Position numbers and translations under genes: made by a program. 64,000 nt of DNA from the NCBI GenBank assembly GCA_977017645.1, contig OZ360223.1, forward strand, positions 29,760,001 to 29,824,000. Direction: 5' to 3'. The stretch comes from Torpedo marmorata (lineage: Eukaryota). This document shows, piece after piece, positions 13,201 to 37,200 of the stretch; position 1 is the stretch's first letter, and each line of letters starts with the position of its first letter. The notes beneath the pieces were generated by a model. That model was not told the origin of the DNA. It was given only the letters and a program-made list of their open reading frames with translations, and ran no database searches.

Positions 13201-16200
13201 TTTTAAACTCACTGAAAGTGGTAGTACAGATTGGTATGGCCATAATGCAAAGTAATGAAGCTTAGTTACCAAAGCAGAAGTACAGGGAATTTTATTTTAT
13301 GATACCTTATTTAGATTGGAAACTGAAGTTTGATCTACATACATCACAAGTATTAACTAATGAAAATGCAAGCATGAATCAAAGTTCAGGTTAAACTTTC
13401 ATTTGCTCAAAGAACAGGGTCTCATTAAGATTAATATAATGTAGCCTGATCATTTAAATGTTGAGAAAATACATTAATGTGGAAAAGTCATTGTTGCAAC
13501 ATGACCACCAATGGGGAAGATTTAAAACAACAAAAAATGTAAAATTTACTGTCAGCTTGAGTAGTCAAAAAAGTTAACCCTGTATGAAGGGGAGGCTCTC
13601 TGCATACTTGAGAATGAAGGGAAGTATTTATATCCAGGAAGGACAGACTCTGTAAAAGATTGGAGCCATTGAACTCGGAATCTAGGCGCCAGAGAACAAT
13701 TAACTCAATAACCTTGGTCGGTCCTGTGGATCTGATATAATTGTATGAAATTCCAATGGAGACCCCAAAAAGCAAACTCTACATTTTAATAAAAACACAG
13801 GATGAAGTAACCTTGAAAATTCTACCCAAGTTATGCCATTTACAAGTTACTTTTGAAATTACAGGGATAACGCAAAACAAAACTAAGGCGAGGTGGATAA
13901 GCGCATGGTGAAGTACTGAGACAAAAAATACAAGCACACTTTGCATCCTTTCCAGAATAACTCAAGTACCTGTACTGGTGAAGTGTAGAAAACATGGCTA
14001 GTTCTCAAGAAGCAAATTCCCACGTAGCAATCTGATAAACATCAGCTATTTCATTTGAGATACAACTACTGGCCTAGACAGGGTAACTCCTCTACTGGTC
14101 TTTGCAATTGCAGTGCATGCATGTCCACTTGGGAGAGCAGACAGACATCTTAAAGCAATCATAGCTCTATCATCCTTTAAGTAGATACCAAAACTAAAGG
14201 TGACAATTCTATTGAAACTCAGAGCAAATATATCAATTTGAAAGACTAATGAACTTGTCTAGCAATAGTGACATTTTGAATTAGAAACCACAAATCAGGT
14301 GATTGATAGAATTTTAACTTGCCCAAAACTACCAGAAAACACCATGCTGAAAGAGGACATTATTTTGAAGGACAAACGTGCAATTTAAAACTTAGCCATA
14401 ATCAATGGGGCTCTGGCTGGACAAAGAACTGCTCCTGTAAAGATCTGAAAATGTGGATACGCAGCACCAAGAATAGCAACTGCCAACATCGCAGGTATAT
14501 TTCTTCTCTAAGAAGCATAACTAAGCAACCCATATATGGTTCTTTCCCAGAGTCAAGAAGCTTTCCTGTTTGGGAGACTGAAGCTAGTTATGTGAAATCA
14601 AGGCATGAATAGAGAATAAGTGGCAATAGTGAGAGGTGACTGGCAGGGAGGCAAGGATAATCAAAGCTCACATTGCAAAAGAAAATCTTGGATCAGCATC
14701 CTGCCATTTCCCCAATGAGTCAGTCTTATTTCTTCGAGGGAAGAATACTGATACTGTTGGTACTTAATTTATGGGGAACTAGGAGGCAGCAGGTCTCCCT
14801 CCAGGTATAAATACAGTTTGGGTTAAAAGGAAGAAAGGGCTTCTTTTAAAAAGAGGAAAAAAAAAGCTTAGAATAACATGGTTCAACACAGAACAAGCTT
14901 GCAGTTTCTGAAGCTGCATGGATGTTGCTGTCAGAAGTAAAAAGATGGAATTCAGTGGAAAATCAACTTGATATTTGCTTAGTGGATTATTCTAATAAAT
15001 TACTGTATGAAGCACGGGAACAATGCTCCAAGCATTCAATTGAGTTATATCTTACATAAAAATATAATTTGATCACATCCTGATCACTGGTCTCAAGTTC
15101 AGCAAAAATTGATAGCGGAAAATTTATTAATATGAAAGCTTCATCACACAGGGAATACTGGAGTTTCAGTTGCAAACTTCCCCAAACCAATTTATTAAAA
15201 TACATTTTTAAAGCACCATTCTATTACAACATTTTGAAAATTGGTTATGTCGGAAGTGTGACAAGTGACAAGCAAGAATGCTCATGGACATTGCAATCTG
15301 CCAGAAAGGTTTGGTCAAGGAATAGGTATCCCAATGCAGTGAAGCATATCAGCTCCTGTCTGAGTGGTGACATGGATCCGTTCCAGTTCGCCTATCGCGG
15401 CAACAGGTCTACGGCAGATGCCATCTCACTGGCTCTACACAAAGCCCTGGAACACTTGGACAGCAAAGATGCATACATCAGGATGCTCTTTATCGACTAC
15501 AGTTCGGCATTTAACACCATCATCCCCTCAAAACTGATCAGCAAACTCCAAGACCTGGGAGTTAACACCCACAGTGTAATTAGATCATGGATTTCCTCAC
15601 CTCCAGACCACAATCAGTGAAGATTGGTAAGAACTTCTCCTCCACAATCTCCATCAGCACTGGAGCACCACAGGGCTGGGTTCTTAGCCCCCTGCTCTAC
15701 TCACTTTACACCTACGACTGTGTAGCTCGGTATGACAATAACACCATCTACAAATTTGCCGACAATACCACGGTAGTAGGTTGTATAAAGGAAGGGGATG
15801 AGTCAGCATACAGGATGGAGATTGAAAACTTGGCTGAATGGTGTACCAACAACAACCTTGCACTCAATGTCACCAAAACTAAGGAGCTGATTGTTGACTT
15901 CAGGAAAGGAAAACCAGAGGTATACAATCCAGTGATCATTGGGGGATCAGAGGTGGAGAGGGTGAGCAAATTTAGGTTCTTGGGAGTCACTATCTCGGAG
16001 GATCTTTCCTGGACCTAACACACCAATGGCATTGTGAAGAAAGCACGTCAGCGCCTCTACTTCCTCAGGAGTTTGCGGAGGTTTGGTATGACATCAGAAA
16101 CCCTGGCAAATTTCTACAGATGTGTGGTGGAAAGTGTGCTGACCGGCTGCATCATGGTCTGGTATACGAACACCAATACCCCTGAGCGTAAAGCCCTCCA

Positions 16201-19200
16201 AAAGGTAGTGGACACAGCCCAGGACATTACTGGCAAAACCCTCCCCACTATTGAGTTCAACTACAGGGAACGATGCCGTCGGAGGGCAGCAGCAATCATC
16301 AAAGACCCACACCACCCAGCACACGCTCTGTTCTCGCTGCTGCCATCAGGGAAGAGGTATAGGTGCCACAAGACTCGCACCACCAGGTTTAGGAACAGTT
16401 GCTACCCCTCTACCATCAGAATCCTCAACGACAAAGTCAAATCAGAGACTCATTTAAGGACTCTTACACTTTATTGATTTTTCTTTGCTCTCTCTGTTTT
16501 GCAGTTTCATTCCTTACCTGTTTGCAGTTCTTTTGATTGTTTACATGTTTACGCTGTGTACAGTTTACTTTTTTCACTACCAATTAGTTGTAATTCTGCC
16601 GCGCCCGCAGGAAAAAGAATCTCAGGTTTGCATGTGACGTCATATATGTACTCTTGACAATAAATCTGAAATCTGCTCTCAAAGACAGAGCCATGTGATC
16701 CTTTCAGCCTGAGGAGGCATATGGAGCTGGAGTTTCACATGGCAGTGAAGCATCCTGTTCAATTAGCCCTAAGACACTGGATTGAAAGTTAAACCCTCCA
16801 CTTTACTTGTTGGAAGCATTTCTAGAGTAAAAGTCTAGACAGATGCACCCAACAATAGATTACATGGCTGATTGCACATGCTCATTCAAGTACTTTCCTC
16901 TATTGGACCCCATCTAATTGTTATGCAACAGGCACCCATGTCCAGTTTTGTTAGAAGTATCCTCCATTGAGATGCACAAATGCTCCTGTTGATCAGCAGT
17001 AGTTTAGTCAGGATTTTGTAAAAATGGCCCCAAAATTCCCATAGATGCACCCCGATATTGTGCTGCCATTAGATTCATCCACTCTTATCCAACTACAAAG
17101 AAAAACACAATTTTATAGCTGGAACACTGGCATTTCAAAATAGCAAGGATACAATAAATCAAAAGCTATTGAGACATTTCACCACATGTACCAGTTTCTT
17201 ACCAGTGGTTCCTTTTTCAAGACCTGATCCATAAGCTGAAACCAGACCTGGGTCTCCTGTCTGCCCAGGTTCACCAACTCGAACCTTGAATGGACTGCCC
17301 GTGATGTGTTTGCCATTGAATTTGACATCAATAGAATGAACACCATTCTCATGAGGGAGAAATCGAATAGCATACTTGTCTGTAACAAACACCATTAAGA
17401 ACTGAACTTTTAAACCATGAATTTAGCAACGTGACCAGCATTTATACTCTAGTGGCCAACACTATACGAGATCTCTTCACTTGCACCATAAAATCTATAT
17501 TTCATGAAACCGCATGCAACAAGTACAGGGCTCTACCATTCTAGACTTACAACTAAAACAAAGTCAGAAAATCAGGCTAAACTATTCAATACTGTAGCTA
17601 AAACATACCTCCAGTACACGAGAGAGCTGTCTTAGCCTGAACAGTAATTGAGAACCACAAGTTTTATGCATGCACGCCTTATTCAGCCTCTTTCTCCCCC
17701 ACCCCCCACCAGCCCAACTAGATTTACCACATGGGGTGGGTGCAGTACAAGAGGAACAAAAGTACAACTGAAGCAATAATGGAGAGCCATTCACAAATGC
17801 TTACCTGGCTCTATCTGTGATACATGGGTATCTTCCACTGCCCCAGAAGGACTATGAACTTTGGCATCAATCAAACCCTTGGCACCATTCAGTCGCACAG
17901 CAAAAGACACAGGCTGATTAACTTTTAAACCTGACTCCTGGAGATTGAATAGCAAACACTTCATTGCATTTTGAACACTAAAGCACTCATGTAGAACAAC
18001 ACAGTGTTGTCTAATTGGACTACCTACTTCACTTCTTACCCACTTGGCTGTTTGCCAGGTACTTCATAGCAATGGATGACAGAACCAATTTAACCCCACA
18101 GGTTTGAGTACACCTAGTGCAACCAAACTGCCCACAGTGAAATGGGGCTTCTTAAAATCTTGTTTTAGTTTCCTTCCAGAAATAAATTCCTTGATACAAC
18201 AAAGAAAATCATTGTTGACAGCTTTTGAACAGATGAACGTCCTAGAGATAATCAAGAAGGAGTTTAAAGTTATAAACTAGATGACAAAAATGTTACAGGG
18301 AGCCATGCAATGGTGAATTAACGAGCAGTGCTGTTTGCAATTTGTGCAGAGTGTAGATATTATGGTAATAGAATTGGTGGTGAAACATCTCAACTTAATT
18401 ATGAGAATCAATGCCACTAATCCAACTGTTTTAGATTTTAACCCACTTCAAAATTTGAAGACAAAACAACCAGACTGCAAAGGAAGTTCCATGATCAAAA
18501 GCAGGTGGCAATTCCACTTAAAACAATTTCACCAAGACCAACATAAAATTTAAATGTTTTGATTTTAAAAATATCTTGCACAATTAAGAAACAAATTTGC
18601 TGTCTAGCCGAATAAAGGATCATTTTCTTAAAGTTTAACTTGGGCTATGTGAATGAAGCTCACAATTAAACAAATCAAGATTTGACTTCCATTTCAGCAG
18701 GTAGCCCTCTGTGGTGACAAAGAGAACTTGCTGTAAAGAAGAGGTTTTTTTTGGACAGAACTTGGCACCTCGAGTTCCTAACTCTGAATAGCTGATACTG
18801 TCTGCAGCCAAAAATCTATCGTGATCAATTAGCTTAGGTTGTGGAATTAATTTTAATGGAGCAAAAATAGGAAGTAGTTTGCAAATTTCAGTCCCATGTT
18901 GACTTTAGAAAGTACTGTGGCACAAAAGCTTATGGCTCACAAAGCACTGATGAGTTTAGACTTGAGAAAGCAATTTCACTGATCCATGCCAAATGGACCC
19001 AGCAGTGAGCAAAGCTGCACAAGTTCTCATTCACAATGAAACACTGCATGCAAAGAGAATTTTGATTGTATTTCAGTTCAAGACTATGCGATTTCCTAAA
19101 GTTTGCAAATTGGTTTGAAGAAAATGGCTCAGATTTTGCAGAATGAACCACAGAGACAGTCTGCGCCAAGTACATCCAACATAACTGTCAGCGTTCCCAA

Positions 19201-22200
19201 TCGTCAGGCAGGGAAATACGTCACAAACTTCTCTTCACTGGAACTTCATTAAAATATTTCTTTTTTTTTTGTTTAAAAAGAGAAAAAAGTTGGGGTACCT
19301 GCCTAAATGCTGGGCTTTCCCTTTCAAGTGCATTACACAAACTCAGCAGGGCACGCAGCATCTGCAGGAAGTAAATGTTAACCAACATTTGGGCCTGGGC
19401 CCCTGCCCTTTCAAGCGAGTGATTAGGACCTGTGCTTCTATTTTAACGATTACTGCCAACCATTTTGAAAACTCAAGTGTGAAGTTTTGTTTACCCCAAA
19501 TTATAAATTTAAAATGGAGATTCTTCAATTTGACTGGCAGAAGATGCAAAGTTGATTCCCCTCCTCACAGCTTCCCTACTGGAAACAAAGCACTAAAAGG
19601 TGGCTCTAATAACTTCCATTCATGACATAAAAGCCCAGTCTCTGGGCTTTGATTCATTGTGGATGCTGTCCTTTCAATTACTGGCTACAAAACCTAAGCA
19701 TTTCCATATTTCAATAGAGTAAAATTGATCTTGTAACCAACATTAAATGCCGGGTTTGAGATCAAATCGTAATAAATGATTTCACATTACCTGTTAACAT
19801 TTGTTGCTGCTAAACGGTTGAAGAGAATTCCCTAGTTTGGCACTCAATTTGGAATACCTATCTTTAATTTTATTTTGTTTGAAGTGGTGCATCTAAAACC
19901 CAGAAGCAGAATAGCAAATTCAATCTTAGCACCCAGTATCAACTACAGAACAATCAACTTTGGTAAACTCTCCATTCTCTTCAACCTTTAGCTTTTTATT
20001 GACATGCATTTTGCAGATATGCTGTTAAAAACCTTTAAATGAGACACAAGAAAAACATCCTAAAATGTTAAGTGGCAGACAGTGAACCCCTTCTTACACA
20101 TGCATCAAAAAGGTCACATCAACACAAAGTCTTCCTTTCATTTCAGCCAGAATTCTAAAGGTCAGATCAAATTCAAAGCTGGAATGTGGTGTAACATCAA
20201 GAAGAAAAATCTCCCATGAAGCAAGGATCAAAGTAATCTGCTGTCCAGGTTTGAGAACTTATTGCCAAGAGCAAAACCATCATGTAGATGATCACATATT
20301 AATGATCTCAGAAGCGAATGTAATTATGCAATTTCATATTTAAAAGTAGAAATTTGTAGTTTTATTCCCCAATGCAGCTTCCAAAATGACTTGGTTACAT
20401 TTTAACTCAAATCATTACTTCCTTTAAATCTTTCCTATGGAACAAATTTAATTTCGGCATCTTGCATGGATGGAATCTTCAAAAAAATGCCAAGATCAAA
20501 TTAGATTACCCAGCCACAAAACAGGAGTGTGTATAATCTTTTTTTTTTTTTTTTTTTTAAACCCTGTCCCAGCATCCCTACAATGAGACCCTCTCTCCTC
20601 ACACTGTTCTTTCACTGCCCAGGAACTTCTGGAGAAAACCTACAATTACCATTACCACTCTAAAAGCACAACTTTTGGAAGGGATACAATAGAATTATTG
20701 AAATTTGCACTGCAAAACAAGCGTTAACTTACGTTGAAACCTCAAAGGGCATCTCTCAATAATATCCTGGTTGGAGTTTTGTTCTGTATTCAAACAAGTT
20801 ATTCAAGCAATTCCTTGCATTCATATGCCTCCATATTCTCCATTCCATTTCACATTTAAAGCATCTCAAACCCAACATCTAATTATACCAATCCTATGTG
20901 ACCTCTGCATGTGCAGCAGGGGGCCCACAGCCAGGAAGCAGATATTTTCTTATGTCTCACCTGAAGACTAGTAACAGTAAGTCTGCTTGCATCTTCTGAA
21001 GAAGCAGCGATGGGGACAATAAAAGGGCTGTCAGGGATGTACTCATCGTTGAACTTTATGGACACTTCATAATCACCTGTAACAAAAACAGACACTGATC
21101 AACTTCCATAAAATATAGAAATTATGCTGTATTAAAATCTGAGATGTACATCAAATCTTAATGGCATTAACCGAATATCAACACATTCACTTTGGAATTG
21201 TACCTCAATAACGAGAAACAAGCTCTTCATATACATGTATTTATAAATATCCAGTTTAAGATTTTATTGGACAATTTAACTGCATTAGTCATTTGTTTCA
21301 CTTGTTAAAAAAATTGCAAATTGTGATCCTCCTTGAAGCATAGAAAACAGAATTTTAAAATGCAGGTCTCATCACAAGTACTTATATACCATTTGTAACA
21401 ATACACATCTTCATCATAGTATCAATCCAAATTCAACAGCCAAACAGAGATTAGAAACTAAGACAAGTCTGATTCAATGAAGGTTATTTCTTTGTGGATG
21501 GGGAAGATTGTTATGAAAGTGGAGAGTTTGGTGAATTACAGTGTTTAATCCTTTAGCAACAAACAGATAGCTAATGAGGTGATCTAGGATGACCAGCACA
21601 GAGAAGTGTATTGGGAGAATACAGACATTGAGAATTGTAAAGTTCAATAGATAAGGAAAGAAGGCCATGGAGGGATTTAGAAACGGCAATATTGATGAAT
21701 AAACAGTAACTGGTCCAAATTAAAACAACTTTACTGCAGAACAGGAGACAAAAGACAACCACATTCCAAAACATGAAGGATGGTTTCCATAAGTGAGCAG
21801 ATACATGAACCAAACAGAAAACACTGGTAAAACTCAGGTCAGACATAGTGGAAAGAGTAAAGCAATGATTCAGGTTCAGTACACTATCAGAACTACTAGC
21901 CTTGTTCTACCAGATACCTTCTGCCCCTCGTAGAGGAGGAAAAGAGTCTGCTGCTCCCACATTGGCCTCAGAACATGGTCAGAAGTCATCCTCAATTAAG
22001 GGGTTGTCCAAGGGTGGTACAGTTAGCACAACCCTGTTACAGCACCAGCGAGCCAGGATCGTATCTGGAGTTTGTATGTTCTCCCCATGACCTGTGCAAG
22101 TTTGCTCCAGGTGCTCCAGTTCCCTCCCACCTCTTTTTATTACGGTGTACATCAGCTGACAGACTTTATTTACCAATAAACATTCAAGATAGACTGCCCA

Positions 22201-25200
22201 GTTGGTTTTTTTTTTGTTCTGTTTTATTTATATTAGGTGGGGTTTTGTAGGAAAAAAAAATTTTCTTCTCTTTTTGCTTTTTGTTTTTTTCTTTTTTCTT
22301 CATCTCTGAAAAATTCGGTTTGAGGAGATGAGAAACTATTAGAATATATTGGTTAATTATGATATAAGGCAGATTATTATTGTACAGATTTTTTTAATGT
22401 ATATGTATTCTTATTGTCCTCATATTTTGATCACTTATTAAAATATGTTAGTGAGAAAGGGAGAAGAGGAGATTGGAGAAAATTATATATAAATGATCTA
22501 TATTTGTTGTACCGAAGATATATCTCTATTGTTACTCACTGTTAAATTGTACTCATTCTGTGCAACATTGCCTTTTTAATTTCTGTATTGTAATTTTTAC
22601 AAAATCAATAAAAAGATTGAAAAAGAAAGAGAAACAAACTGGTCAGGTAGAGGAAGATGAGATGCAAGGTGGAGTGGGTGATTCGAAGACAAAGGCTCCA
22701 GTGCTGGAATCTCACAGGTAGAAATAGAGAGAATGGTAGTGCAAAGAGATGGAACCAGAGGAAACAAATCTGGATTACAAGTAAACGTCCACAGATTTAC
22801 ACAGCACTCACCGGGCTCCTGTGCAACGTACGACACACCGCAGGATCCATCTTTCCGGTCTTCAAACGAAATCTCCGCCCTGCTGGGTCCTTCCACAGCT
22901 ATGGAAAGGCCACCTGCACCAGCTTCACGCGTCCAAATACTGAATTCAGCTACAGGCAAGTATAACAATACTCAAAACCTTTTAGCATTTCTTGCATACT
23001 GTCCAAGCTATTTTTTTTTAAAAATTCATCCCAGTTCTTGGTTAAAAGTAGTGAAATCATTTGGCCCAACCCAAACAACAGTGTACAGTAAAACTCCAGG
23101 TATCCGACACCTATGGGGATTGTAGATGCCGGATAAGTGGTTTCCGGTTGCTTGAGACTGTATGTTGCGTGGATTGACGAATTGGCCGCTGGGGGGGGGG
23201 GCGCCAATTTTAAAGTTTCATATTTATTGCCGCGATTTTTTTTGCCGGTGCTCGAATTCCGGATAATGGGGATTTTACTGTATCTTGGTGTTCTCCTGGA
23301 AAAAGTAGAAATTCAGGTCTACAGAGGTCTTACAAACCTCCTGACTGACCAAGCAACATCAAATTCTATTATTTCAGTAAATGGGCCAAGCCCATTTCAA
23401 ATTCCAGACATCTGAAATCCTGCCGCCTGTGTCAGAAGGCTATAGAATTCTGCGTGGAAGAGATCCTAAGCCTTGAGACACAAATCCCAGAATACCATGA
23501 CAGTCTAAGCAAACATCTTGCTGCATGGCGAGCAAGTATTCTAAATCAAATGGGCTCAATGGGTTCCAGTTGACGAACATTGCATTAATCCGAGTCCTGG
23601 CCAAGGTTGAGCAATCCCAGACCCTCTTGGCACTTTGCCACTATCTGACAGGATAGGGGAACCATTTGACTTTCCTTTCAATGTCCTCTGTTAGAATTGC
23701 AGTCAGTTACCAACAATAGCATAAGTGAACGTCCCCAGGTTTTTGGACAGGCACCGACTGCCAGAATTAACACGTACCTAAACAAAGATCTGGACCCACT
23801 GCAATTCACCTATCGTCACAATCGCTCCACAGCAGATGCAATATCGCTGGCTCTCCACTCAGCTCTGGATCACCTCGAAAACAGCAATTCATACATACAG
23901 CTGCTCTTCATTAACTGCAGCTCGGCCTTCAATACCATTATTCCGTCAGTGCTGGTCAAGAAGCTACAAACTCTAGGCCTCTGTACCCCACTCTGCAACT
24001 GGATCCTTGACTTTCTCATCGGAAGACCACAGTCAGTATGAATTGGAAACAACGTCTCCTCCTCACTGATTATCAACACAGGCGCACCCCAAGGATGCGT
24101 GCTTAGCCCACTGCTCCACTCGTTATACACCCATGACTGTGTGGCCAGGCACAATTCCACTGCCATCTACAAGTTTGCCAATGACACCACAGTTGTCGGC
24201 AGAATCACAAACGGCAATGAGGAAGCGTACAGAAGGGAGATAGATCAGCTCGTTGAATGGTGTAATGACAAAAACCTTGCGCTCAACGTCAGCAAAACCA
24301 AGGAGATTATTGTGGACTTCAGGAGGAAGTCAGGGGAACACGACCCAGTCCTCATCGAGGGCTCAGTAGTGGAGAGGGTCAAGAACTTCAAATTCCTTGG
24401 TGTCAACATCTCCGAGGTTCTGTCCTGGAGCCTCCACGTTGATGTAATCACAAAGAAGGCTCGCCAGCGGCTATACTTTGTGAGGTGTCTGAGGAGATTC
24501 GGTATGTCATCGAAGACTCTCGAAAACTTCTACAGGTGTACCGTGGAGAGCATTCTGGCTGGTTGCATCACTGCCTGGTGTATTGTCTCAGGACAAGAAT
24601 AAACTCCAGAGGGTTGTTAACTCGGCCTGTGACATCAGAGGCACCAGACTTCACTCCATCGAAGACATCTACACAAGATGGTGTCTTAAAAAAGCAGCCT
24701 CTGTCCTCAAAGACCCCCAACCACCCAGGCCATGCCCTCTTCACTCTGCTACCATCGTAAAAAAAGATACAGGAGCCTAAAGTCGAGCACTCAACGGCAC
24801 AAGGACAGCTTCTTCCCCGCTGCCATTAGATTCCTGAATAATCAATGAACCAAAGACACTGCCTTACTTTTCGTGCACTATTATTTATATATTTTTTTTA
24901 AAAATAGTAATGTTGTAAGATGGTAATAATATGAATGTTTGCACTATGATGCTGCCGCAAAACACCGAATTTCATGACTTGTTCATGACAATAAATTCTG
25001 ATTCTGTATACAAAGCACAGGTGTTTGTACCTGGGTGCTTTGGTAAGTAACTGAACAGGTTTACCTTCCTATAAATTCAAGATTATGTATGCACAAGACT
25101 ATAGCTCCTGAACTGTTGACATTGTGCTGGATAACACAGCAAATGAACCCAAAATGGGCAAAGGAAAAATCAATTTGGAATCTCTCAGCTAAGCAGGCCA

Positions 25201-28200
25201 TTTGAAGAAAAAGCACAAGAAAGTCAAGCTAGTGCCACAAACAAAAGGAAAAACTTAGCAATGATCACCAACCAAATTTTGTGCACTGATTGTTAACGCA
25301 CCCTTTACATGTTCAAATGCTGTTCCACGTAGAAGCCACTTACCATGCCATTTGGATGCTCTTTGTAACAAGATTTAGACAACAGTCCGCAAGACAGGTA
25401 ACAGACTTGAATAACTAATGATCAAAGGTGACGTTAGCAACTTACCTGGGACTCCGACTACCCCTTGTTCAAGCCCTGGACCACCAGCTCGCACTTTTAG
25501 AGCTCCTCCTTCACCAAGTGGTCCCACTGTGAATTGGAAAGGACTGCCAGGGACATGTTGGTTTTGATACTTTACGGAGACTGTGTGCACACCCATCTCA
25601 TGGGGCACAAATCTGACACAGTAGGTGTGGTTGTCACTTTCAGTAATCTCTGCTTCGATAATCTTTCCAGAGGGACTCATCACTTGAGCAGACATGTCAT
25701 GGACATCAATTTCTATAGAGGAACAACATGCATTAAGTGGAACCAAAATATATCACATTTGTTGCCAAAATAAATGGAGCCTCATGAAGTGCTGTGAAGG
25801 AAGCATATTTGCCTTAAACCCATGCGGAATTTAGATTTCACAGTACATTAAACAGCTTGGGTGCCTCTGGCATCAGAATACCATGACCATGAGAGTCTGA
25901 GCCAACCTCTTGCTGCAGGGAGAGCAAGTGTTCCAAATCAAATGGGCTTATCCAGGGTTCCAGTTGACAAAATGACATTAATCTGAGTGCTTGCCAAGGT
26001 TGAGCAAACGTCAAGCTTTATTATTGCTAATACAAAACCACACGGTTCATGAAGAGATTCCAAAGGACAAATTAAATTAGTTATCTTCAAATTATTTCTT
26101 GTCATATACAGGAGATGGCAACATTAAATTTTAGACTAAAAGCAAACGTGCATTTATTTGGACTCTTGCCAAATTATGAGCACAAGACGAAAGCCCACAT
26201 CTGTGTCCATCAGAGATTACTCCCTGGGATATTTCTCCCACCCAAATTCTTGAACAGAGGCCAAGATGTGACCAGATTACCCATGACTAGAGGGATTTTC
26301 CAAGTCATGGAATGATCACATCCTCCCGGTGAAGATGCCAAATTTCTTTCATTCTTCTATGTGCTAAAACAAGGGGAAAAGAAAATGTCTGTGCACCATT
26401 GCAATCACATGCATGCATGACCACAATTGAGAAGTTATTACAATTACTCTAAGATTTCTACCATCCCAATCTTCACACTTCAATATGAAAAATGTCAGCA
26501 ATGTGCAGCAGGAAGCGTTCACCACTTCCACGATCACTTTCCTTCTTTTGACCACTGATCTCTGCATCTCAGGGCTACAACGATAACTGCCTGAAGAGTT
26601 GCCTTGGAATCAAGTAAGCATTAAGATTGCCATTCGCCCAATGGCAGCCCAGGTCAAAACACTCGTCAACGTTTGGGCAACGGCATGTTTGAAAAGTCTC
26701 TCAGAACCTTCTGCCACTATTGGTGCAGTGCCTTTGGGTTCCCTCCTTGGTTGTATCAAGCCCCTTTTTGAAGGCAGGAAGATAGGTTAGGGCTAAAATC
26801 AAGGCAGAAGTTAGGAGTCAAACTCCCATCTAACAAATTCTGTCATACCACAAAACAAAATCTCTGACTTGGGAAACCAAAGTTTTAAATTGAGATCCAA
26901 ACCTCAAATTCACAGTGTGACAAGATTCAAAAATCCTCAAAGATCAGGGGTGGTGATGTGGAGAGGATGTTGCCTCTTGTAGGAGAATCCAGAACTAGGA
27001 GTCACTTTTTTTTTAATAAAAAGGGTCACCCATTTAAGTTTGAGGTGAAATGTCTTCAGAGGGTCAGCTTTGAAACACCCAGAGAGGGGTAATGAAAGCA
27101 GAGACTGAATGCTCAGGCAGAGGTAGGTAGATTGTTGATGAGCAACAGGGATGGTGGTGAAAGTTGACTACAAGCATAGGAATGTGAAGGTAAAGGTTAC
27201 TCACACTCTTCCTATTTGACAGGAACACCTCAAGGGGCCAAGTGACTGATGATTCCTGCTAATTTATACTTGGTTCCTAATTCAGGTTGAGCAAACAAAG
27301 GGTGCTGTTTAAATCAGATAATGCCAAGGAGGAAATTACATCCATGGACAAAAAAGTTTTGTGCTCTAATCTATTGACACCCCTTTTCTAGTTTTAGAAA
27401 CTTTAGTCAATTATACTCTTTATTAATCATCACAACAAACTAAGGCTGGATTTAGTCAGGCAATCTGACTTGATCAAACCTTTAGTGATAACAAGCAGTT
27501 TTAATCACTGATAAAACCCTTAGAAATCAAGATGAAAACCATTACAGCAGATAGTTTATTTTGATGACCATCAATTCTACAGCATTTTGTATCATCGCAT
27601 CTTTATGAGAGATTGTCCAATTATTCCTCAGCCTCAAATAGAGTTCGTCACTTGATCAAAAGTTGTGGTAGGAGCCATGTTTACTACACACCCAAAACTA
27701 CTCCCAGAATTGATACTTGGGGCAAAACAGAGCAATGTTAGTAGAGGGCCAAAGTTAAGCACCATCTGCATTTGCAGTTCACCTACCACTTCTTTAAAGT
27801 GCTGAGCAGAAAAAAAGTGTAGCACAACACCATGACCTTGCATTTGGGAGACTAAACGTGCTTAGGAAACATGCAAGGAAAGGAAATTCTCACTCATGCA
27901 ACAACCAATGATAGGAGCATGCTAGGTGATTTAAAATGAGCACGTTTTGCCGACCTCAGAATCCATATGCCCAGTGCTGAAACGCACCCTCCGACCTCAG
28001 TGGCCTTGCACTGAATGGGTCATGTTCCTCCTGGCCAAAGCGGCCAGGCAGGGAGGAAAAAGGTAGACTTTGAACACTAGCTGGGTCCTTGGGTTTTTCG
28101 AACTGAATCTGGCGAAGGTCCATACTTTCAGCACACAAGAAAGTGCAAGTTGTCTGAAAATCAGAGTGCATGTGACAGAGGTGCTCCCGAGCCACCATTA

Positions 28201-31200
28201 GTTGGAATCAAGTCACTGAGAGGAATTGGAAAGGAAAGACAGGAAACAAGTTTTGTTTAGAAGAGTGTTAGAAACAGAAAAGCACTTCAGTTTTCTATAT
28301 TTTCATACATTTACTTTTAACGTCTACGTCTCAATCAGAATGCATCTGGTCTAATCTAGACGATTTGATTTTGAGTGAGATAACAATTCAACTGATTATC
28401 CCAGAATAGCCTAAATAGCGTTGCTGCTGAAAGTTAATTTCCTCTGCCCACATGAATGAGGGGAATGCAGCAATTTGCACATCAAGATTGTAAACATCGC
28501 AGGGCAGTGTAACATGAATGCAAAGGTCATTATGAATGCAATTTAATAATACTCAAAATTAAATAACCAAAATAGGTTAAACTTGAATAATGGCAACTTT
28601 TAGATTATTTCTATTTGTTTGCCAATAATCTCCCCCTTATGAAACTCTTCAATTTGGTTTCTTTAGGAACGTGAAACAATCAATTTTCTGTTGATGCAAT
28701 CTACAACAAGGAAAGTTCAACGGATTCATGCTTCATGTCTAGTTCAGATAATTGATGTCAACACTAACATTAGTCATTACATTAATGTTACGGCTTTACA
28801 AGTTTCAACATCTTTAAAAACATCAGGTCTCGTCTCAAAGTAAAAACTCGAGTGCCATTTAAATCAGTAGAAATGAAAAAAGGCTGGAAAGAATTCTGAA
28901 CCAGAAATGCTATCACAGCACATTCCTCAAAACTGTAAACATGAACTAATTCTTCACATTTGTGCCCTTTAGAAAGATTTCAATGCATTGCATTCACAAG
29001 TAAATGCGACATATCTGATTAATTCATTTAAACGGGCTGGATTGAATTATTAGAAGTAGCGTTGGAGGATTAGAAATTTTTTCCAGCTTTACTCTAAAGG
29101 TATTCTTTGTACAAAGATTTAAAGAGATTGGATGCTATTTTCCCAGTTACACGACATTGATTGCTCAGCTGCCATTTAAAATGCCACACCACCACCCAAA
29201 TTCCATCAAGGCTGCTTGGTTATACAGTAAATGCTCTGCTAACCCAGCTACACAAACTCTGGGGCCAAAATAGTTTCACTGACAAAGCAGATTCCAAATA
29301 ATTCTTCCAATCTTACCGGGAATCTTCAAATTCAAATCACAGATGCTTCCAATCATTGTCTCAGAGGCAGCCCGTCGTCTGCAGGTAATGCTCTCTTTTA
29401 CCCTGCCTTCACCCGTTACTTTCACTGTGAATGGACTCCCTGCAAAGAAAACCAGTTTCTCCTTTACATTCAACTCCAACTTCATTCCTGCACATGAACA
29501 GCACTGCAAGCTTTTAAAACTCCCTCAACTTCTGCAAATTGCAGGGACACGAACAAAATATACAAACTTGATCTTACTGCCTGGGGTACTATAAAATAGC
29601 AATGATATACAAATGAGTTATGAATGCAATAATTCATACATTTTAAACCTGTAGGTCTTGTGGATAAATAACAATCTCAAGCAAATTATCTTAATTTGAA
29701 GCAAATTAACTTTGTAGTTCTCATTGTCATACCTGGAACATGCTGGTCAGCAAATTTGATGTAAATAATGTAAGTGCCAGGCTCAGTTGGACAGTACAAA
29801 ACTTTGCAGGTCCTTTCTTCTGTCTCTTCTGTGTTAATATCCACCTTACTTGGGCCTTCAATGGATAATGCAAGCCCACCATAACCTGGAAACCAAAGTA
29901 ATGGATACATTTCAAAATGTTTTGGTTTTGAATATTCAAAATATCACCAAGATTCTCTAAAGGCAATAACAGTGTAATACGAGATCGTTTTGAAAGGAGG
30001 CAACTCCATAGTACCTATCCTAGCTACATTTTGTATCTGCACAAGATTTTAAAAAGAACTCTGAAGTTTAAAAATGGACTTTACATTCAATTACAACAGT
30101 GTACAAGCACTTCCCAACCCGAGACAAACCGTTCCAAGCAGTGAGAAATCAAAACGCATAATGTAATATGTCACAGGCCTTTTCCTGTAATGCACGCTTC
30201 TTGGATTATAAAATATTGGGAAGCCAGAATCTTTTTTTGACCGTTTCCAAATCTTACCTGCATCTCTTGTGTCCACAATGAAGTCAGACATTTCAAATGT
30301 TCGTCCTGCCTTCAACCCTTCTCCAGAGACCCGAACCCTGCTGGCATCTCCAATTTCTGACTGCCCAACCATAATGGTAATTGGACTATTTGCCACATGT
30401 CTACCATTTTTCTTTATGCTGACAAGGTGTTTACCAACTTCCCGTGGGACGAAGGAGATACCTATAGTCAAAAATATTGTTAACATAACAATTATTGTCC
30501 ATCCCCACCTGTCCCAAGCAGTTGGTGGCTCATGATATTAATTTAATTTTAATTTTTTTAAATTAAAAATTAAAATTTAGAACAGGCCCTTCCGGCCAAT
30601 GAGCCCGTGCCGTCCAATTACACCCAATAGATCTACAACCCCCATACGTTTTGAAGGGTGGAAACCGGAGCACCCGGAGGAAACCCATGCAGACACGAGG
30701 AGAACATACTAACTCCTTACAGACAGCGCTGGATTCGAACATGGGTCGCTGGCACTTTTGCGCTCACTGCTACGTTAACTGTGCCGCCCAGATACGTACC
30801 AATCTGTATCTCCTTTAAACCAACAGACCCTACTAATAAGTGTAATTCAAGTCTGAACTATGCTCCCATCTCCTCCTTTAAAACCACTGCAAAATTCACT
30901 TGGCTTTCCTCGCTTAGTTGTTTGCATCTTGGTCCATTCCCGGCTCTCTCCACCATCCCCAATAATGCTTCAACCAATAACACCTGGCGATTGAAACATT
31001 TGAATACACATGCTATGAAATTCATCCGTGTCACAGAAGGACATTGTACTTATACCCCCCAGACTTCTGAAGCTTGCTAAGATCACTAAATAGTGCATTC
31101 AACACCACGAATTGTGCATGAATTTCCAGGCATCTCAGTTTTAAATTTCAACAAGAGTGCTCAGTTTGAAAATAATGGAATATGTTACAGAGACAAACTG

Positions 31201-34200
31201 GACTTTTAAACCAAGCATTCTTTGAGAAAAGATGCTACTTTCATGCAGGCCAGGCAACATCTGTCAAATTGCTTTTTAACATTTCAGGTTGATTGCACAA
31301 AAAAAGGTTACCCTACTCCTATTAACATTTCCTGGCCCTTTTCCACTCATTATTGCTCAAATTTCCTTGTGTCAGCCAACTTTGAGCAGGTTCAGTATGA
31401 AGGCACAACTGATTGTACTTCATGCTTGCACTGCTTAGTCAAACTGCTGCTTCACAGCTCCATTGACCAGAGTTTAAACTTGCCCATGGTACCAAGACAA
31501 ACCTGCACATGACCTCTGAGTACTTACAACATTTAAAAAATATATATTTTCTAGCCTCTTCAGCTTGTTTTGCAGTCCCCAAAAGTGTTCAGTTGCTCTG
31601 GTGGCAGTGTTGAAGCAATGAAGTTAACTTGATGGCTCTAGATACTCACCAATGTGGTTGTTTGGTAGTCTCTTCAGCAGGCATGGCTCATCTTGGCCAC
31701 ATGGGGATTTAATGTTGGCGGTTAGCAGACTGAGATTACTTTCATTGATGTCCAACGAGATGTCAGCAGCTGAGCCAACCTTGACCTGGGACTTGCACCT
31801 GGTATCATCTGAAAAAGAAACAAGACAATCTTCAATCCATTCTGTTTTGGATGTACACTTTGCTTGAAAATTACAGCCATGTAATTTAGGAGCTTCAGAT
31901 TTATTGGATGCCCCAGTTCACAATATGCTTGCTCATTTACATCCACACACAAATATTATCCACATTTAAAATACCACCAGAATAAAACATTACTGTGATT
32001 TGTTAGGTGGAATATCTAACTTCTCAATGATATCCTGCCGCTCTGCATATTGCAATATTCGTGTGAACTTGATCCAAGCTTCAACCTAGTTGCAATTTTT
32101 TTTATAAAAAGATTATTCAAAGTAACAAGCCACCAACCAAATACAAACCTGGACTTCAGATCTATTCCTTAAAATGTAACCTTGGACATGCAAGGACAAG
32201 CAGAAATTTTGGACACTCAATTCTCAAGCTGTTCTTGAGCCCAATTGATCTCCCATACAAAAATATTATTTCCCTGTCAATATCTTCAAGTGGAGGCATG
32301 CAGAGTTACGTTCATGTATACCATTAGAAAAAATTACTTATAATTTACGAAATAAATATCATTCTTTTTTGAAAATTTGGGGCCCATATATGAGGATTAT
32401 GGGTTTAACACTGTAAATTCTCTAGATATCAGATCCGCTGGCGAAAATAACCTCTAAGGTATATTAGTTTTTAAGTTTATTGACTCCTCATTCTATTTTT
32501 CTATCTTTCCTTTTTCTTTTTCTTTTTCTTCTTTTTATTATTTTACTTTAAATTTAGAATAGGGGGATATTGGGGCTAGGGATGGGAGGGAGAAAATGTA
32601 AATCACATGTATTTTTTAAAGAAATATATGCAAAATTATTTTATGTAATCTGTGATTTAAAAATTTAAATAAAATATTTAAAAAAATATATATATCTTCA
32701 AGTGGAGAACAGTAGATCTTTAAAATAACCTTTATATTCAAGCAAAATGATTCTAGCTACTAAGAGAATTCTGAAAACTAGATGTTACAACTTGGAGGTT
32801 TCAGCAACAAAACAGTTAATCATAGCTGCTCAAGTTCTTAGAGGGGATAAGACAAGAGGAGAAACCAAATAATCTTATTGCAGCTGCAGAATCAAGAGCG
32901 TCAAGTTTCCCCAACAATTAAAATGCTGGAATGAGTTCTGGTCAACTTTTATGCAACACAACACTGAATTTCTATTAAGTGGACAAAATGCAAAAAACAT
33001 TACATTTGCCTCAACTGGAATATTTCAGCCTACTTGCAATTACTTTGCACACCTTGTTTCCATTACCTGTAATTTTGGCAGTGAAAGGACTTCCAGGGAT
33101 ATGTTTTTCATTATATTTGACAAGGATACTGTAGTCCCCTGGCAGGACTGGGAGGTACGATACTGTACATGTACCATCCTTGTTATCTATACAGCTAATT
33201 TCTGCCTTAGAAGGACCTTCAATGGCCAAGTCCAGACCACCTACATGGGAAAATAAAAAAGTACACTGAAGCAAACTATTTAGCATTTTTAATAGAAATT
33301 AGCACTGATCAACAACTCCAGTTAACTAACCAGCATTTACTCGAACATAGCCAGCTGGCATTTCCCACAAACATATGAATCACATTGCTGCCGATTTTAC
33401 TATTTTCAAACTGGTACCAATCTGAAATTAGTCCTGCGAGCCAAATTTCCTTCAGAATATTGTTTAACAGCAAGATGTGAAATTTTCATTCATAGTTGGA
33501 CTGTCTCATGCCTTTGCAAACACTGCAGTGTTTTACCATTCCCTGCAGGTTCAGTATGCAGGCACAACTGATTGTACTTCATGCTTGCACTGGTTAGTCA
33601 AACTGCTGCTTCACAGCTCCATTGACCAGAGTTTAAACTTGCCCATGGTACCAAGTCGAGCCTGCACATACAGGCAGTCCCCGGGTTAAAAACGTCCGAT
33701 TTACGAACAACTCGTACTTACGAACCGAAAAGCCGGCTGAAAGTAGAATGCAGTCAACTTCCGGTTCGAGCATGGTTGAGTCAGCATCACAAGAGAGTAT
33801 GCTGTACAATACTCTTTTTGACCCGCAGTTTTAAATTTGCAACGTTAAAGTTTTATTGTTGTTGCTATTTAAACTACCTCATAATACTTTGCAAGACTAG
33901 TTTAAAATATTTGAAATATAGGCACTGAGCTGTGGAATAGAGAGAGTTAAGTGGCTGTGTTGAAAGTTATTGCTGTCCCCGCTGTGATCGGGCTCCCTGC
34001 ACTATCCCGCAGCACGCTGCCTTACACTGATGGGAATCTGGGTTTTTTCCGTCTCTGCTCTGATGCGGCAGACCAGCGAGTTTCGAAACCACTGAACAAC
34101 GCCAGTTTAATGGAGGAGAACCCCTGAGTTAGGATTAGGGGCAGACCAGCGAGTTTCCAAACCACTGACCAACGCATTAGGGTTAGGGGTAAACTACATT

Positions 34201-37200
34201 AGACAAATATTTTCTTAAATAAACGATGTTTACTTATTGCCAATAAAGATCTATTGTCAATAAAGATCCGTTTTATATATCCCTTTTATACCATTGGAAC
34301 GTATTACGTTAAAGTGCATTGTAATAATGCTTTGAACAGTGCAGTTTTCCATAGCACTGAACTTGCTTGGAACGCGTTAACCGTGTTGTACTCTTATTTC
34401 GTCTGCTTTACAAGTGACTCGTGAACCAACAGTTTGGTGACTCTTTACTGCCTCCTTGGGTTAAAGGCAGCAAGAAATGAACAGATGCTTCTTTGCAGCT
34501 GATTCCACCTCCAAGTTTCACGTGGCAAAAATCAAACCCTGACTCTCCAGCAGCAGAATCAAACCCTGACTCTCCAGCACCAGGTCCATCCTCTCCAACA
34601 GTAGCCATCTCTCCATCATCTTCTACATTATCCAATTATGTACTGTATTATTATGTTTAAGATGTTGTAGTGTATTTCGAAGTGTTCTTTTAAGTGTTTT
34701 ACATGTATAGAAAGGTAAAATATATACTATATACTAAGATAAACATTTGACTAACTGACGCTAAATATGTACTTGTTCCGACTTAAATACAAGTTCGAGT
34801 TAAAGACAGACCTGGGTAATGGAACTCGTTTTTAACCCGGGGACTCGTATGACCTCATGCTTTTCCTGAAGATGGCCGCTGTAGCGGCAGCGCTGCCGCT
34901 GGTGCGGACCCGCGGGGAGCGTGGGAGCGGAGATACAGCGCTCCCGTGGGGTCCAGCCGCCCAATCGACTGCCGTCGATTCCGCACGGGCTTTGAACAGC
35001 CCGTTAAAGGAGCCGACGGTGGTTTTATTTAAGATCCCGCGACCGCGGGGTCTGCGCCCAAGATGGCAGCGCCTATTAACCGGCAGCAGCCACGAGGGGC
35101 TGCAGACTCCGGGGAAGCGGAGGACTGGAGCAGGGCACCAGTGGACGGGAAGATCACCCCCGTCTGAGAAGGAGAAGCGGAGGAGACGACCCACGGGACG
35201 GTGACCAGGGCGGCGGACCAGTGAGGGGCTCTGAGGCTGAAGGACCAGTGCATGCGGCGGGCTGCTGGCGACTCGAGGCGAGGAACCCGCGGAGGCTGTG
35301 GGCTGCTGGAGACTGCTGTCGGGGGACTCACGACGGGCTGCGGACTGCTGGAGGTTGGCTCGAACTGGCTGGAGGAGTACCAGGTATCGGAACCGGGATG
35401 TGAGGGGGTGCCGAGGGCGACCTGACCGTGTTGGAGGTTGGATCTGGAGCTCGGGATGCCGATCGTTTGGACTGGACTCTGTGTGGCTGCGGAAGCGCTG
35501 GAGGCGAATCTATGGACACTTGGTGACTCTGGGGGGACTCTCTTTTGCTTCTCTTTCTCTGACTGTAAGGAATGTTAGAGGCGCCTAGGCAGTTTCTGCC
35601 GATGGCGAATCTGTCTGCCTTGGAGCAGGCAAAAAGAAATTTCGTGGTATATGACACTGTCGTATTGCTGTGACAATAAATTGAATCTTGATCTTGAAAT
35701 GAGCCAGATTCCTCCACATCCCAAAAATTAGGCATTTTGGTCGATTAATTGGCCGTTTAGCTTGTAGATGAGTGGTAAAACTTGGGTAGTGTGCGGAAGG
35801 AGATGAAGTTGAAGGGAATGCATGGAGACACTGGCATCACTAGGGGGGTGTGGACTGCACCGGGTGACACCATCAGAGCGGGTGACAAAAATGAAGCACG
35901 TGGTTTCGTCTGCACGCGCTACAAGGTCAGCGCCTCCGCCACTCCACCGCCCCCCCCCTCGTTCCGGTCAGCGCCGCCCCCACCCCCCCCCCGGTGAGCG
36001 CCGCCACTCCTGGGGGGGGGGGGGGGTGACACCATGAGTTACCGCACCGGGTGGAGAATGAAGGGCTAGGGTGGAATTGGTGGTGCAAGCAAGTGTTCAG
36101 TAGCATAGACTATGGGCCAAGTTTCAGTGCAAGGCATTTTGATTCAGTTTGACAAACATTATACAGATCACCCCAATGACACACTTCAGAGCAAATGGTT
36201 TCATTTTGACAGAGATTCTCACCCTCTCCAGCATCTTCAGTTACAATTGTGAAAGTGGCCAGCTTGTTGGCAACACCATAGACAAGACCTGGGCCGTAGG
36301 CCGACACATGTCCACTGCCTCCATAGTTGACGAAGAACTGAAGTGGACTCTCTGAAAGTAAACAGGTACAACGTTCAGACATATTTGTCAATTTCATCAC
36401 ATTGAATCACTGGCAATAAAGACACTACAATATAACAAAGATCAAGCATCGGCAGTGGAGCTCAAGCCCAGTTAAATGCTGTGCACTTGTTTATTTAGCC
36501 ACAATGACAAAGGTAATGCTGTTGAATCCAAAGTCAAACAATGACCAGAAACACATTTCACAGCCGTAAGAGGTAGTCAGAAGCTACTCAGAAGTACTGT
36601 GGCATGCGACTCACACAGCTCCAAATGTTTCACTGATTTACCAAGCCCAACCTGAAGATGGAAATCATCCCTCCAGCCCAGCTCAAACATCCAGCTCAAC
36701 AAAGTCCATATGGTTGATTAAATACTCATCACCTTCACCACCCCACTGAAGCTGCAATAGGCCTGAAGCAGGGTCGGCGCCAGAACAAGTCTTAGCGGGG
36801 GGCATTAGTGTAACCGCAGGGGGCACAATCTGACCTTCGAAAACTCGCTCAGCGGGTTGGGGGGGGGGGTGCTGCCCTGCGCGTGCCTGTGAGCTCCCTT
36901 CCAGCGTCGGCATCTGGTCTTGGAGCATGCGCCCTGGTCTCCTTCAGGAGCTCTCGGGCGTCCGCAGGGTCCCAGCGCAGTCCAAGGTGTATGCTTCATG
37001 GAGCGAGTCCGAGGGTTTCTATGACCCCCATTATCGTTGTGTGGTAGACTGCGATAAGCAGTCCCAGAAGCAAGACTTTCTTCTTTCTCTACACTGCAAT
37101 TCAATTCAAGTTCAGTTCATTATCATCTGTCTGTACACATACAACCAGACGAAACAGTGTTTCTCCAGACCACGGTGTGCACACACACACGTATACACAC

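Follow-up and report, generated by a model that had tools for sequence, protein, structure and literature searches.

The window, a 64-kb stretch of DNA, carries the 3' two-thirds of a filamin gene on its minus strand. In a tree of 22 rows, the window grouped with named FLNB proteins and was split from FLNA and FLNC at 99/97, and its five upstream exons were identical to Pristis FLNB at 257 of 271 residues and to Narcine FLNB at 256 of 271. By these comparisons the gene is FLNB, the identity assigned to it in the initial annotation. The source genome holds three copies of the 41-residue upstream exon, corresponding to three paralogs; one of them (C57) has a near-mammalian FLNC insert, and another (C100) is FLNA-like and showed no insert. 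In human FLNB, the counterpart of the upstream 123-nt exon is exon 40 (the var-1 exon), also of 123 bp (PMC2199218; here and below, papers are cited for the parts of their text that were available). The intron that follows this exon in the window is 3604 nt long and hosts a 228-nt exon. This exon is separated by 1101 nt from the 123-nt exon and by 2275 nt from the one that follows, and its reading starts V-T-stop-F-Q-L-M. The features of the region are collected in Table 1.

Table 1. Features of the FLNB intron studied and its flanking exons, in window positions; distances with a plus sign are counted from the donor of the 228-nt exon.
Feature	Position	Strand	Basis or remark
Upstream 123-nt FLNB exon, end of Ig19 and start of Ig20, phase-1 donor	29317..29439	-	Transcript joints at 29317 and 29438
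228-nt (76-codon) exon, alternative by comparison, phase 1-1, polypyrimidine tract and AG acceptor, G/GTGCGT donor	27988..28215	-	Orthologs, splice signals
TGA at codon 3 of the exon	28208..28210	-	220 nt upstream of donor
Donor and first intron codons	27957..27987	-	First intron base 27987; read-through gives 10 residues, then a stop
GCATG, RBFOX pentamer	27922-27918	-	+66
TGCATG, RBFOX hexamer	27900-27895	-	+88
TGCATG, RBFOX hexamer	27875-27870	-	+113
GCACG, which we take to be a secondary RBFOX motif	27857..27861	-	+127
ACTAAC, QKI motif (ACUAAC in PMC6103745)	27737..27742	-	+246
Two AATAAA (+428, +564) and one ATTAAA (+483), possible intronic poly(A) signals	27419..27560	-	Not above the level of AT-rich intron
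Downstream constitutive exon, rest of Ig20	25446..25712	-	Spliced directly to 29317 in RNA-type contig

Several other features of the gene were noted. An alternative 31-codon FLNB exon (53454-53362, minus strand) separates the ray isoforms X1 from X4/X6; ACTAAY occurs just upstream of the exon preceding it, with no GCATG within 250 nt. The ortholog of the hinge-1 exon (~45080-44990, minus strand) is alternative in ray isoforms, and GCATG and ACTAAY lie upstream of its matched part, as would be expected if RBFOX and QKI drove its skipping. Several introns (2200-8500, 12000-12840, 15580-16470, 23870-25000 and 34800-35570) are filled with repeats, among them LINE-derived reverse-transcriptase fragments, and the repeat copy at 23.5-25.1 kb had very deep contig cover in run X1.

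Splicing of the region was seen in a 4241-nt contig from one run, which we guess to be of RNA. The contig mapped over 16800-32400 with few differences, and in it the neighbouring exons were spliced, with 29317 joined to 25712 and the 228-nt exon skipped. Skipping of the exon occurs, and the contig shows only that; contigs drop rare forms. No transcript with the 228-nt exon was seen among the contigs of this single RNA-type run, which has no cover over the exon bin and counts only because its contig joins across it.

We compared the exon with filamin records of other animals. Of some 450 filamin records retrieved that include the junction, most skip the exon, and 25 FLNB records from 16 fish species continued after the same junction with V[TS]WF. 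The carriers are catshark, Callorhinchus, coelacanth, lungfish, two sturgeons, paddlefish, gar, bowfin, two mormyrids, brook trout, two catfishes, a cichlid and a perch-like fish, and the catshark exon is identical to the window exon at 51 of 76 residues. Because 25 records carry the exon and most skip it, the exon is probably alternative. Judged by these orthologs, the 228-nt stretch is a real, old and probably alternative exon of FLNB, so that an exon first described as cryptic proves to be a conserved one. Among the records listed, it was carried by 0 of 22 batoid FLNB records, 1 of 23 shark records and 0 of 26 tetrapod FLNB records.

The frame of these orthologs was then considered. Sixteen of the 25 records continue in frame and nine end shortly after the exon. 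Twelve are RefSeq isoform models with the exon. Three of these (Brienomyrus X1 and X2, Siniperca X3) continue in frame by splicing, and in the other nine the reading runs past the donor. The remaining 13 come from UniProt or submitter predictions, and several of them have odd junctions that look as if projected by homology. The included forms are known only as database models of other species. In all nine models that end after the exon, the donor is in frame as E/D-G-A/V-F/L/C, at exon lengths of 51, 61, 76, 79 or 98 codons. The keeping of the frame at the donor despite such varied lengths points to selection for in-frame inclusion; it is what an in-frame cassette would show, and it would be unexpected if the exon were purely terminal or a poison exon. 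The read-through sequence of the window matched the tail of the catshark model at 8 of 10 residues and stopped at the same place, and therefore the first 30 intron nt are conserved between the shark and the Torpedo lineage. Intron conservation is usual beside regulated exons. At a guess, W-A-C in the catshark tail could encode another GCATG at about +18.

Some further observations were made on the records. Sturgeon FLNB models (P0160, P0294, P0297, P0303 and P0045) have a 36-residue duplication of the exon start after the insert position, which suggests tandem acceptor choices. Many bird records named FLNA (P0009, P0011-P0019 and others) are FLNC-like at the junction with the insert skipped, and two records named FLNC (P0387 and P0307) are insert-bearing FLNB; the automatic names track the insert and mislead. 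A search for homologs of the exon peptide among proteins of 129-2000 aa gave no match, and full-length filamins fall outside this range. A HMMER search of 50% representatives gave two matches, both rejected on inspection as repeat proteins unrelated to filamin. In the ESM Atlas, the sturgeon insert gave only generic filamin or sub-threshold matches and the invertebrate exon described below gave no usable match. This fish exon and its homology to the FLNC insert were undescribed in the literature searched, a search that most subscription papers lay outside, and the available parts of PMC13751310, PMC11216089, PMC8670310 and PMC13217883 held nothing on the 228-nt exon.

The 228-nt exon was next to be compared with the insert exon in Ig20 of FLNC. 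A single exon in phase 1-1 between the 123-nt exon and the rest of Ig20 is the arrangement of an FLNC-type insert. The two exons share intron position and phase, and their starts align codon for codon (G-N-W-F-Q in FLNC, V-T-stop/W-F-Q in FLNB). They are similar in size (240-243 nt for FLNC) and in the weakness of their donors (G/GTGTGC in FLNC). The global protein score of the window exon against the FLNC insert of the source genome was 28.5, narrowly above the maximum of 27.5 in 2000 shuffles (mean -15.4, sd 8.5), and no other part of the window gave a better local match to that insert; a DNA-level alignment of the two exons was not above shuffles. By position, phase and protein score, the 228-nt exon is paralogous to the FLNC Ig20 insert exon, and the homology proposed in the initial annotation holds on these grounds. 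The FLNC insert, which targets the Z-disc, is nearly the same in the source genome and in mammals. The FLNB exon, by contrast, has a fast-diverging middle and, in the window, no open frame for a Z-disc-targeting, myotilin-binding insert, with a stop at codon 3. The insert has been called unique to FLNC and sufficient for Z-disc targeting (PMC2192634, van der Ven 2000; PMC7216277, 2020 review); it is described as one 243-bp differentially spliced exon (PMC2192634; PMC7216277) and as muscle-specific (PMC2192634). No remnant of the exon was found in the FLNA intron, where the best local scores were at most 39 and lay in repeat-derived sequence, and no PDB chain matched the FLNC insert.

The position of the TGA is occupied by Trp in all 25 orthologous records and also in FLNC. 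The stop is therefore not conserved across the species compared, and stop-bearing copies cannot appear in protein collections. Nonsense-mediated decay (NMD) is expected where an in-frame premature stop lies more than 50-55 nt upstream of a downstream exon junction. The distance of 220 nt from the TGA to the donor is that of a poison (AS-NMD) exon, and therefore inclusion would yield a decay target; this placement agrees with the earlier claim that inclusion with the TGA would switch off the FLNB message. With Callorhinchus as outgroup, private changes in the exon numbered 14 in the window and 2 in catshark (73 sites), against 14 and 16 in the five upstream exons (270 sites; Fisher p = 0.010). 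With Latimeria as outgroup, the ratios were 8:3 in the exon and 19:15 in the upstream exons, which was not significant (p = 0.48). The region is single-copy in the source genome, and the TGA rests on one assembly copy. We lean towards the view that the stop would be real and not recent, with relaxed protein constraint.

Downstream of the exon, the three RBFOX motifs span 53 nt of the transcribed (minus) strand, and their reported distances of +66, +88 and +113 were reproduced exactly. No GCATG was present in the 400 nt upstream of the 228-nt exon. The minus strand of the whole window contains 28 TGCATG and 65 GCATG, and nowhere else in the window, on either strand, do three or more GCATG fall within 60 nt. 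Dinucleotide shuffling of the stretch after the exon (20,000 trials) produced at least two TGCATG plus at least three GCATG in 0.19% of cases for the first 150 nt and in 0.43% for the first 250 nt. Only the 228-nt exon, among 25 exons scored, had at least two TGCATG in the first 250 nt downstream, and 0 of 26 other FLNB exon matches had as many within that distance. An RBFOX-activated cassette exon is expected to have multiple (U)GCAUG copies close by in the downstream intron, in excess of chance, as is seen here. Pentamer clusters are not unique in the window, because an ordinary-looking coding exon (56200-56021, minus strand) also has three GCATG, one of them TGCATG, at +180, +208 and +241 (55775-55845); no alternative exon is known there. 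Simple arithmetic gave a chance of about 5-11% for such a cluster somewhere among about 27 exons, and therefore the RBFOX case rests on the independent identification of the exon. The predicted fold of the motif region was no better than that of shuffles (z = +1.2), and the pairing of the +66 and +113 motifs in it was given no weight. The source genome has three Fox-1_C loci.

GCATG was absent after the FLNC insert exon of the source genome (137-nt intron), unlike after the FLNB exon, and it was likewise absent after the FLNC insert exon of a teleost contig and after the invertebrate filamin exon. So far, the motif cluster appears to be specific to FLNB; no FLNB intron was found among the 10 loci inspected of 17 from a metagenome scan. 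Elsewhere in the host intron, a TGCATG at 25731 (minus strand) lies in the polypyrimidine region 18-19 nt before the acceptor of the next exon, and a GCATG lies at 25825, about -112. RBFOX at 25731/25825 could hinder that acceptor, favouring use of the upstream exon or retention.

An insert-like exon was also found in an invertebrate filamin. The metagenome contig L024 (with the same match in L025 and L026) contains a filamin gene with many introns. In a tree with long branches and with two further rows oddly placed near FLNC, this filamin lies apart from the vertebrate FLNA, FLNB and FLNC rows, together with two other unnamed non-vertebrate rows (100/99). In the same intron and phase, at L024:5243-5486, AG is followed by D-N-W-K and a Ser/Thr-rich stretch. 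The score of this exon against the FLNC insert was 56; 2000 shuffles reached at most 50, and nine other loci at most 42. The exon possibly ends at a GC donor, and the repeats between about Ig22 and the last one seem to be missing from the L024 gene. The L024 exon suggests that the insert exon likely predates the vertebrate filamin paralogs. Together, the paralogous exon in fish FLNB and the similar exon in an invertebrate indicate that filamin was probably first targeted to muscle through alternative splicing, before A, B and C diverged. The initial annotation had supposed that the ancestral gene made a muscle isoform by splicing, a role later fixed in FLNC. The first part fits the invertebrate exon and the in-frame inserts of the other-fish models, and the second is too strong, since differential splicing is described for the human FLNC exon itself (PMC2192634) and the exon is skipped in several FLNC database models.

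These results led us to an explanation that we consider about evenly balanced between right and wrong. The 228-nt stretch would be an old alternative exon of FLNB, paralogous to the FLNC insert, in which Trp became a stop, and the downstream UGCAUG cluster would let RBFOX promote its inclusion in heart or skeletal muscle, leading to NMD. In this mechanism, the weak donor GTGCGT would normally be ignored, and RBFOX, perhaps with QKI, bound at +66 to +127 would aid its use. The product would be an in-frame FLNC-like insert in most fishes. In the Torpedo lineage the same switch would have turned into an off-switch, giving either decay or a protein that ends two residues into the exon and would lose most of Ig20 through Ig24, the dimerisation domain included. 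In its favour we counted the rarity of the motifs, the enhancement of inclusion by downstream (U)GCAUG copies (PMC2777236), the three Fox-1_C loci, the orthologs, the upkeep of the frame, the proximal intron conserved with catshark, the Callorhinchus rate test, the human heart exon discussed below and the muscle-specific FLNC insert. Against it we counted the skipping contig, the Latimeria test, the nine of 12 RefSeq models that end after the exon, the FLNC paralogs and the invertebrate gene without GCATG, and the TGA known from a single assembly copy.

The relative-rate signal, where present, would fit a decaying relic equally well. On that rather unlikely reading, an ancestral RBFOX-regulated in-frame cassette became useless after the stop and is now almost never included, and its motifs and donor are leftovers. 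The excess of amino-acid change in the window's lineage, the blank among the 22 listed batoid records and the skipping in the only RNA-type contig agree with it, and the 0 of 26 listed tetrapod records and the lack of an FLNA-intron remnant indicate that the exon is dispensable in other lineages. However, the acceptor, the donor, the first 30 intron nt and the frame (228 nt, with one stop but without a frameshift) have all been preserved. Protein databases would lack an exon with a stop whether it is used or not, so the batoid blank says little. The nine RefSeq models, from seven species, that end 3-15 residues after the donor point instead to a terminal-exon or retention switch, in which the acceptor would be used, the weak donor read through and the transcript ended at a poly(A) site within the intron. 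The product would be a stable filamin-B truncated at its C terminus, and the UGCAUG copies would then lie in a 3' UTR or tune the donor against cleavage. The match of the catshark tail to the window read-through up to the same stop position, the AATAAA at +428 and +564, and the binding of 3' UTRs by RBFOX1 (PMC6103745) are consistent with it. We consider this improbable: a purely terminal exon would not need its frame kept at the donor through length changes, Brienomyrus and Siniperca have RefSeq models spliced in frame, read-through models can arise from partly spliced RNA, and four AATAAA in a 2275-nt AT-rich intron are unremarkable.

The stop itself may also be questioned. The TGA is a single base from TGG and the sole break in the frame, Trp is invariant at this position in 25 of 25 orthologous records, and the site was without read cover in the one run, all of which would suit a sequencing error or a rare allele, with the exon still making an in-frame muscle isoform of FLNB with an FLNC-like insert. 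The extra divergence of the exon specific to this lineage with one outgroup, and its presence in 0 of 22 listed batoid isoforms, argue against such an error or allele, to which we give only a small chance. That the motif cluster arose by chance and is unrelated to the exon seems very improbable. The three GCATG downstream of exon 56200-56021, the roughly 27 exons open to a chance cluster and the paralogous exons without one would all allow it, but the cluster is expected in only 0.2-0.4% of local shuffles and lies beside the sole exon independently shown to be alternative and to have a muscle-linked paralog.

Overall, the initial observation was confirmed and its interpretation is partly supported. 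The initial annotation made no mention of the many orthologous models that run past the donor and stop shortly afterwards, or of the published heart-specific truncating exon in this intron of human FLNB (PMC2199218). A wider account, which we offer as possible but doubtful, would start from a pre-vertebrate optional exon of a single filamin gene. After duplication, FLNC would have kept the protein insert, FLNA would have lost it, and FLNB would have kept the RBFOX-driven switch while the peptide drifted; this switch would then have become a muscle off-switch that clears FLNB where FLNC works, in the ray-like lineage and, perhaps by a parallel route, in the human heart with exon 40B/C. If this is true, the change of a coding, tissue-specific exon into a poison exon could be traced, and the poison exon would enforce the partitioning of paralogs. 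The insert is called FLNC-only in PMC2192634 and PMC7216277; fish FLNB has a paralogous exon and an invertebrate filamin a similar one. If the favoured explanation is right and the exon is still included by RBFOX, one splice site would present a natural series of in-frame insert, read-through truncation and poison exon. RBFOX-controlled inclusion, if true, would also suggest an origin and a purpose for the heart-specific truncated variants of human FLNB, whose role bears on how far FLNB can substitute for FLNC in muscle.

The proposed regulation can be compared with known systems, and in type both an RBFOX enhancer and a poison exon in a filamin gene are already known. Downstream (U)GCAUG copies enhance inclusion, and fibronectin EIIIB, NMHC-B N30 and c-src N1 resemble the window exon in having several (U)GCAUG in the proximal downstream intron, none upstream, and a non-consensus donor (PMC2777236). 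Those RBFOX-activated cassettes give a longer protein, whereas the product here would be decay. Poison exons of Flna and Flnb are repressed by PTBP1 in neural progenitors (review PMC12652946); there, too, filamin dose is set by a regulated stop-bearing exon, through PTBP1 repression as against the RBFOX activation proposed here. FLNB exon 30 (hinge 1) is regulated by RBFOX1 and QKI (PMC6103745) and by RBPMS (PMC6613909), so RBFOX and QKI act on FLNB splicing there as proposed for the window exon. Exon 30 is a different, in-frame exon, whose ortholog ends near 44990, and RBFOX1 promotes its skipping.

Human FLNB exon 40B/C (var-2 and var-3; GenBank AF353666) offers a further comparison. It measures 147 or 70 bp and adds a tail of 24-28 residues, against 228 bp and a stop at codon 3 in the window exon, and the two are likened by position and description (PMC2199218, van der Flier 2002). 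The available part of that paper reports no regulator and no link to the FLNC insert, and it leaves open the role of the heart-specific 147-bp exon that truncates the protein from the corresponding intron. Because a heart-specific truncating human exon is known, the novelty of the window exon is lowered. Both exons are alternative and lie in the same gene and the same intron, after the 123-bp exon 40, and inclusion of the human exon, detected in heart, cuts off the last four repeats and with them the dimerisation domain (PMC2199218).
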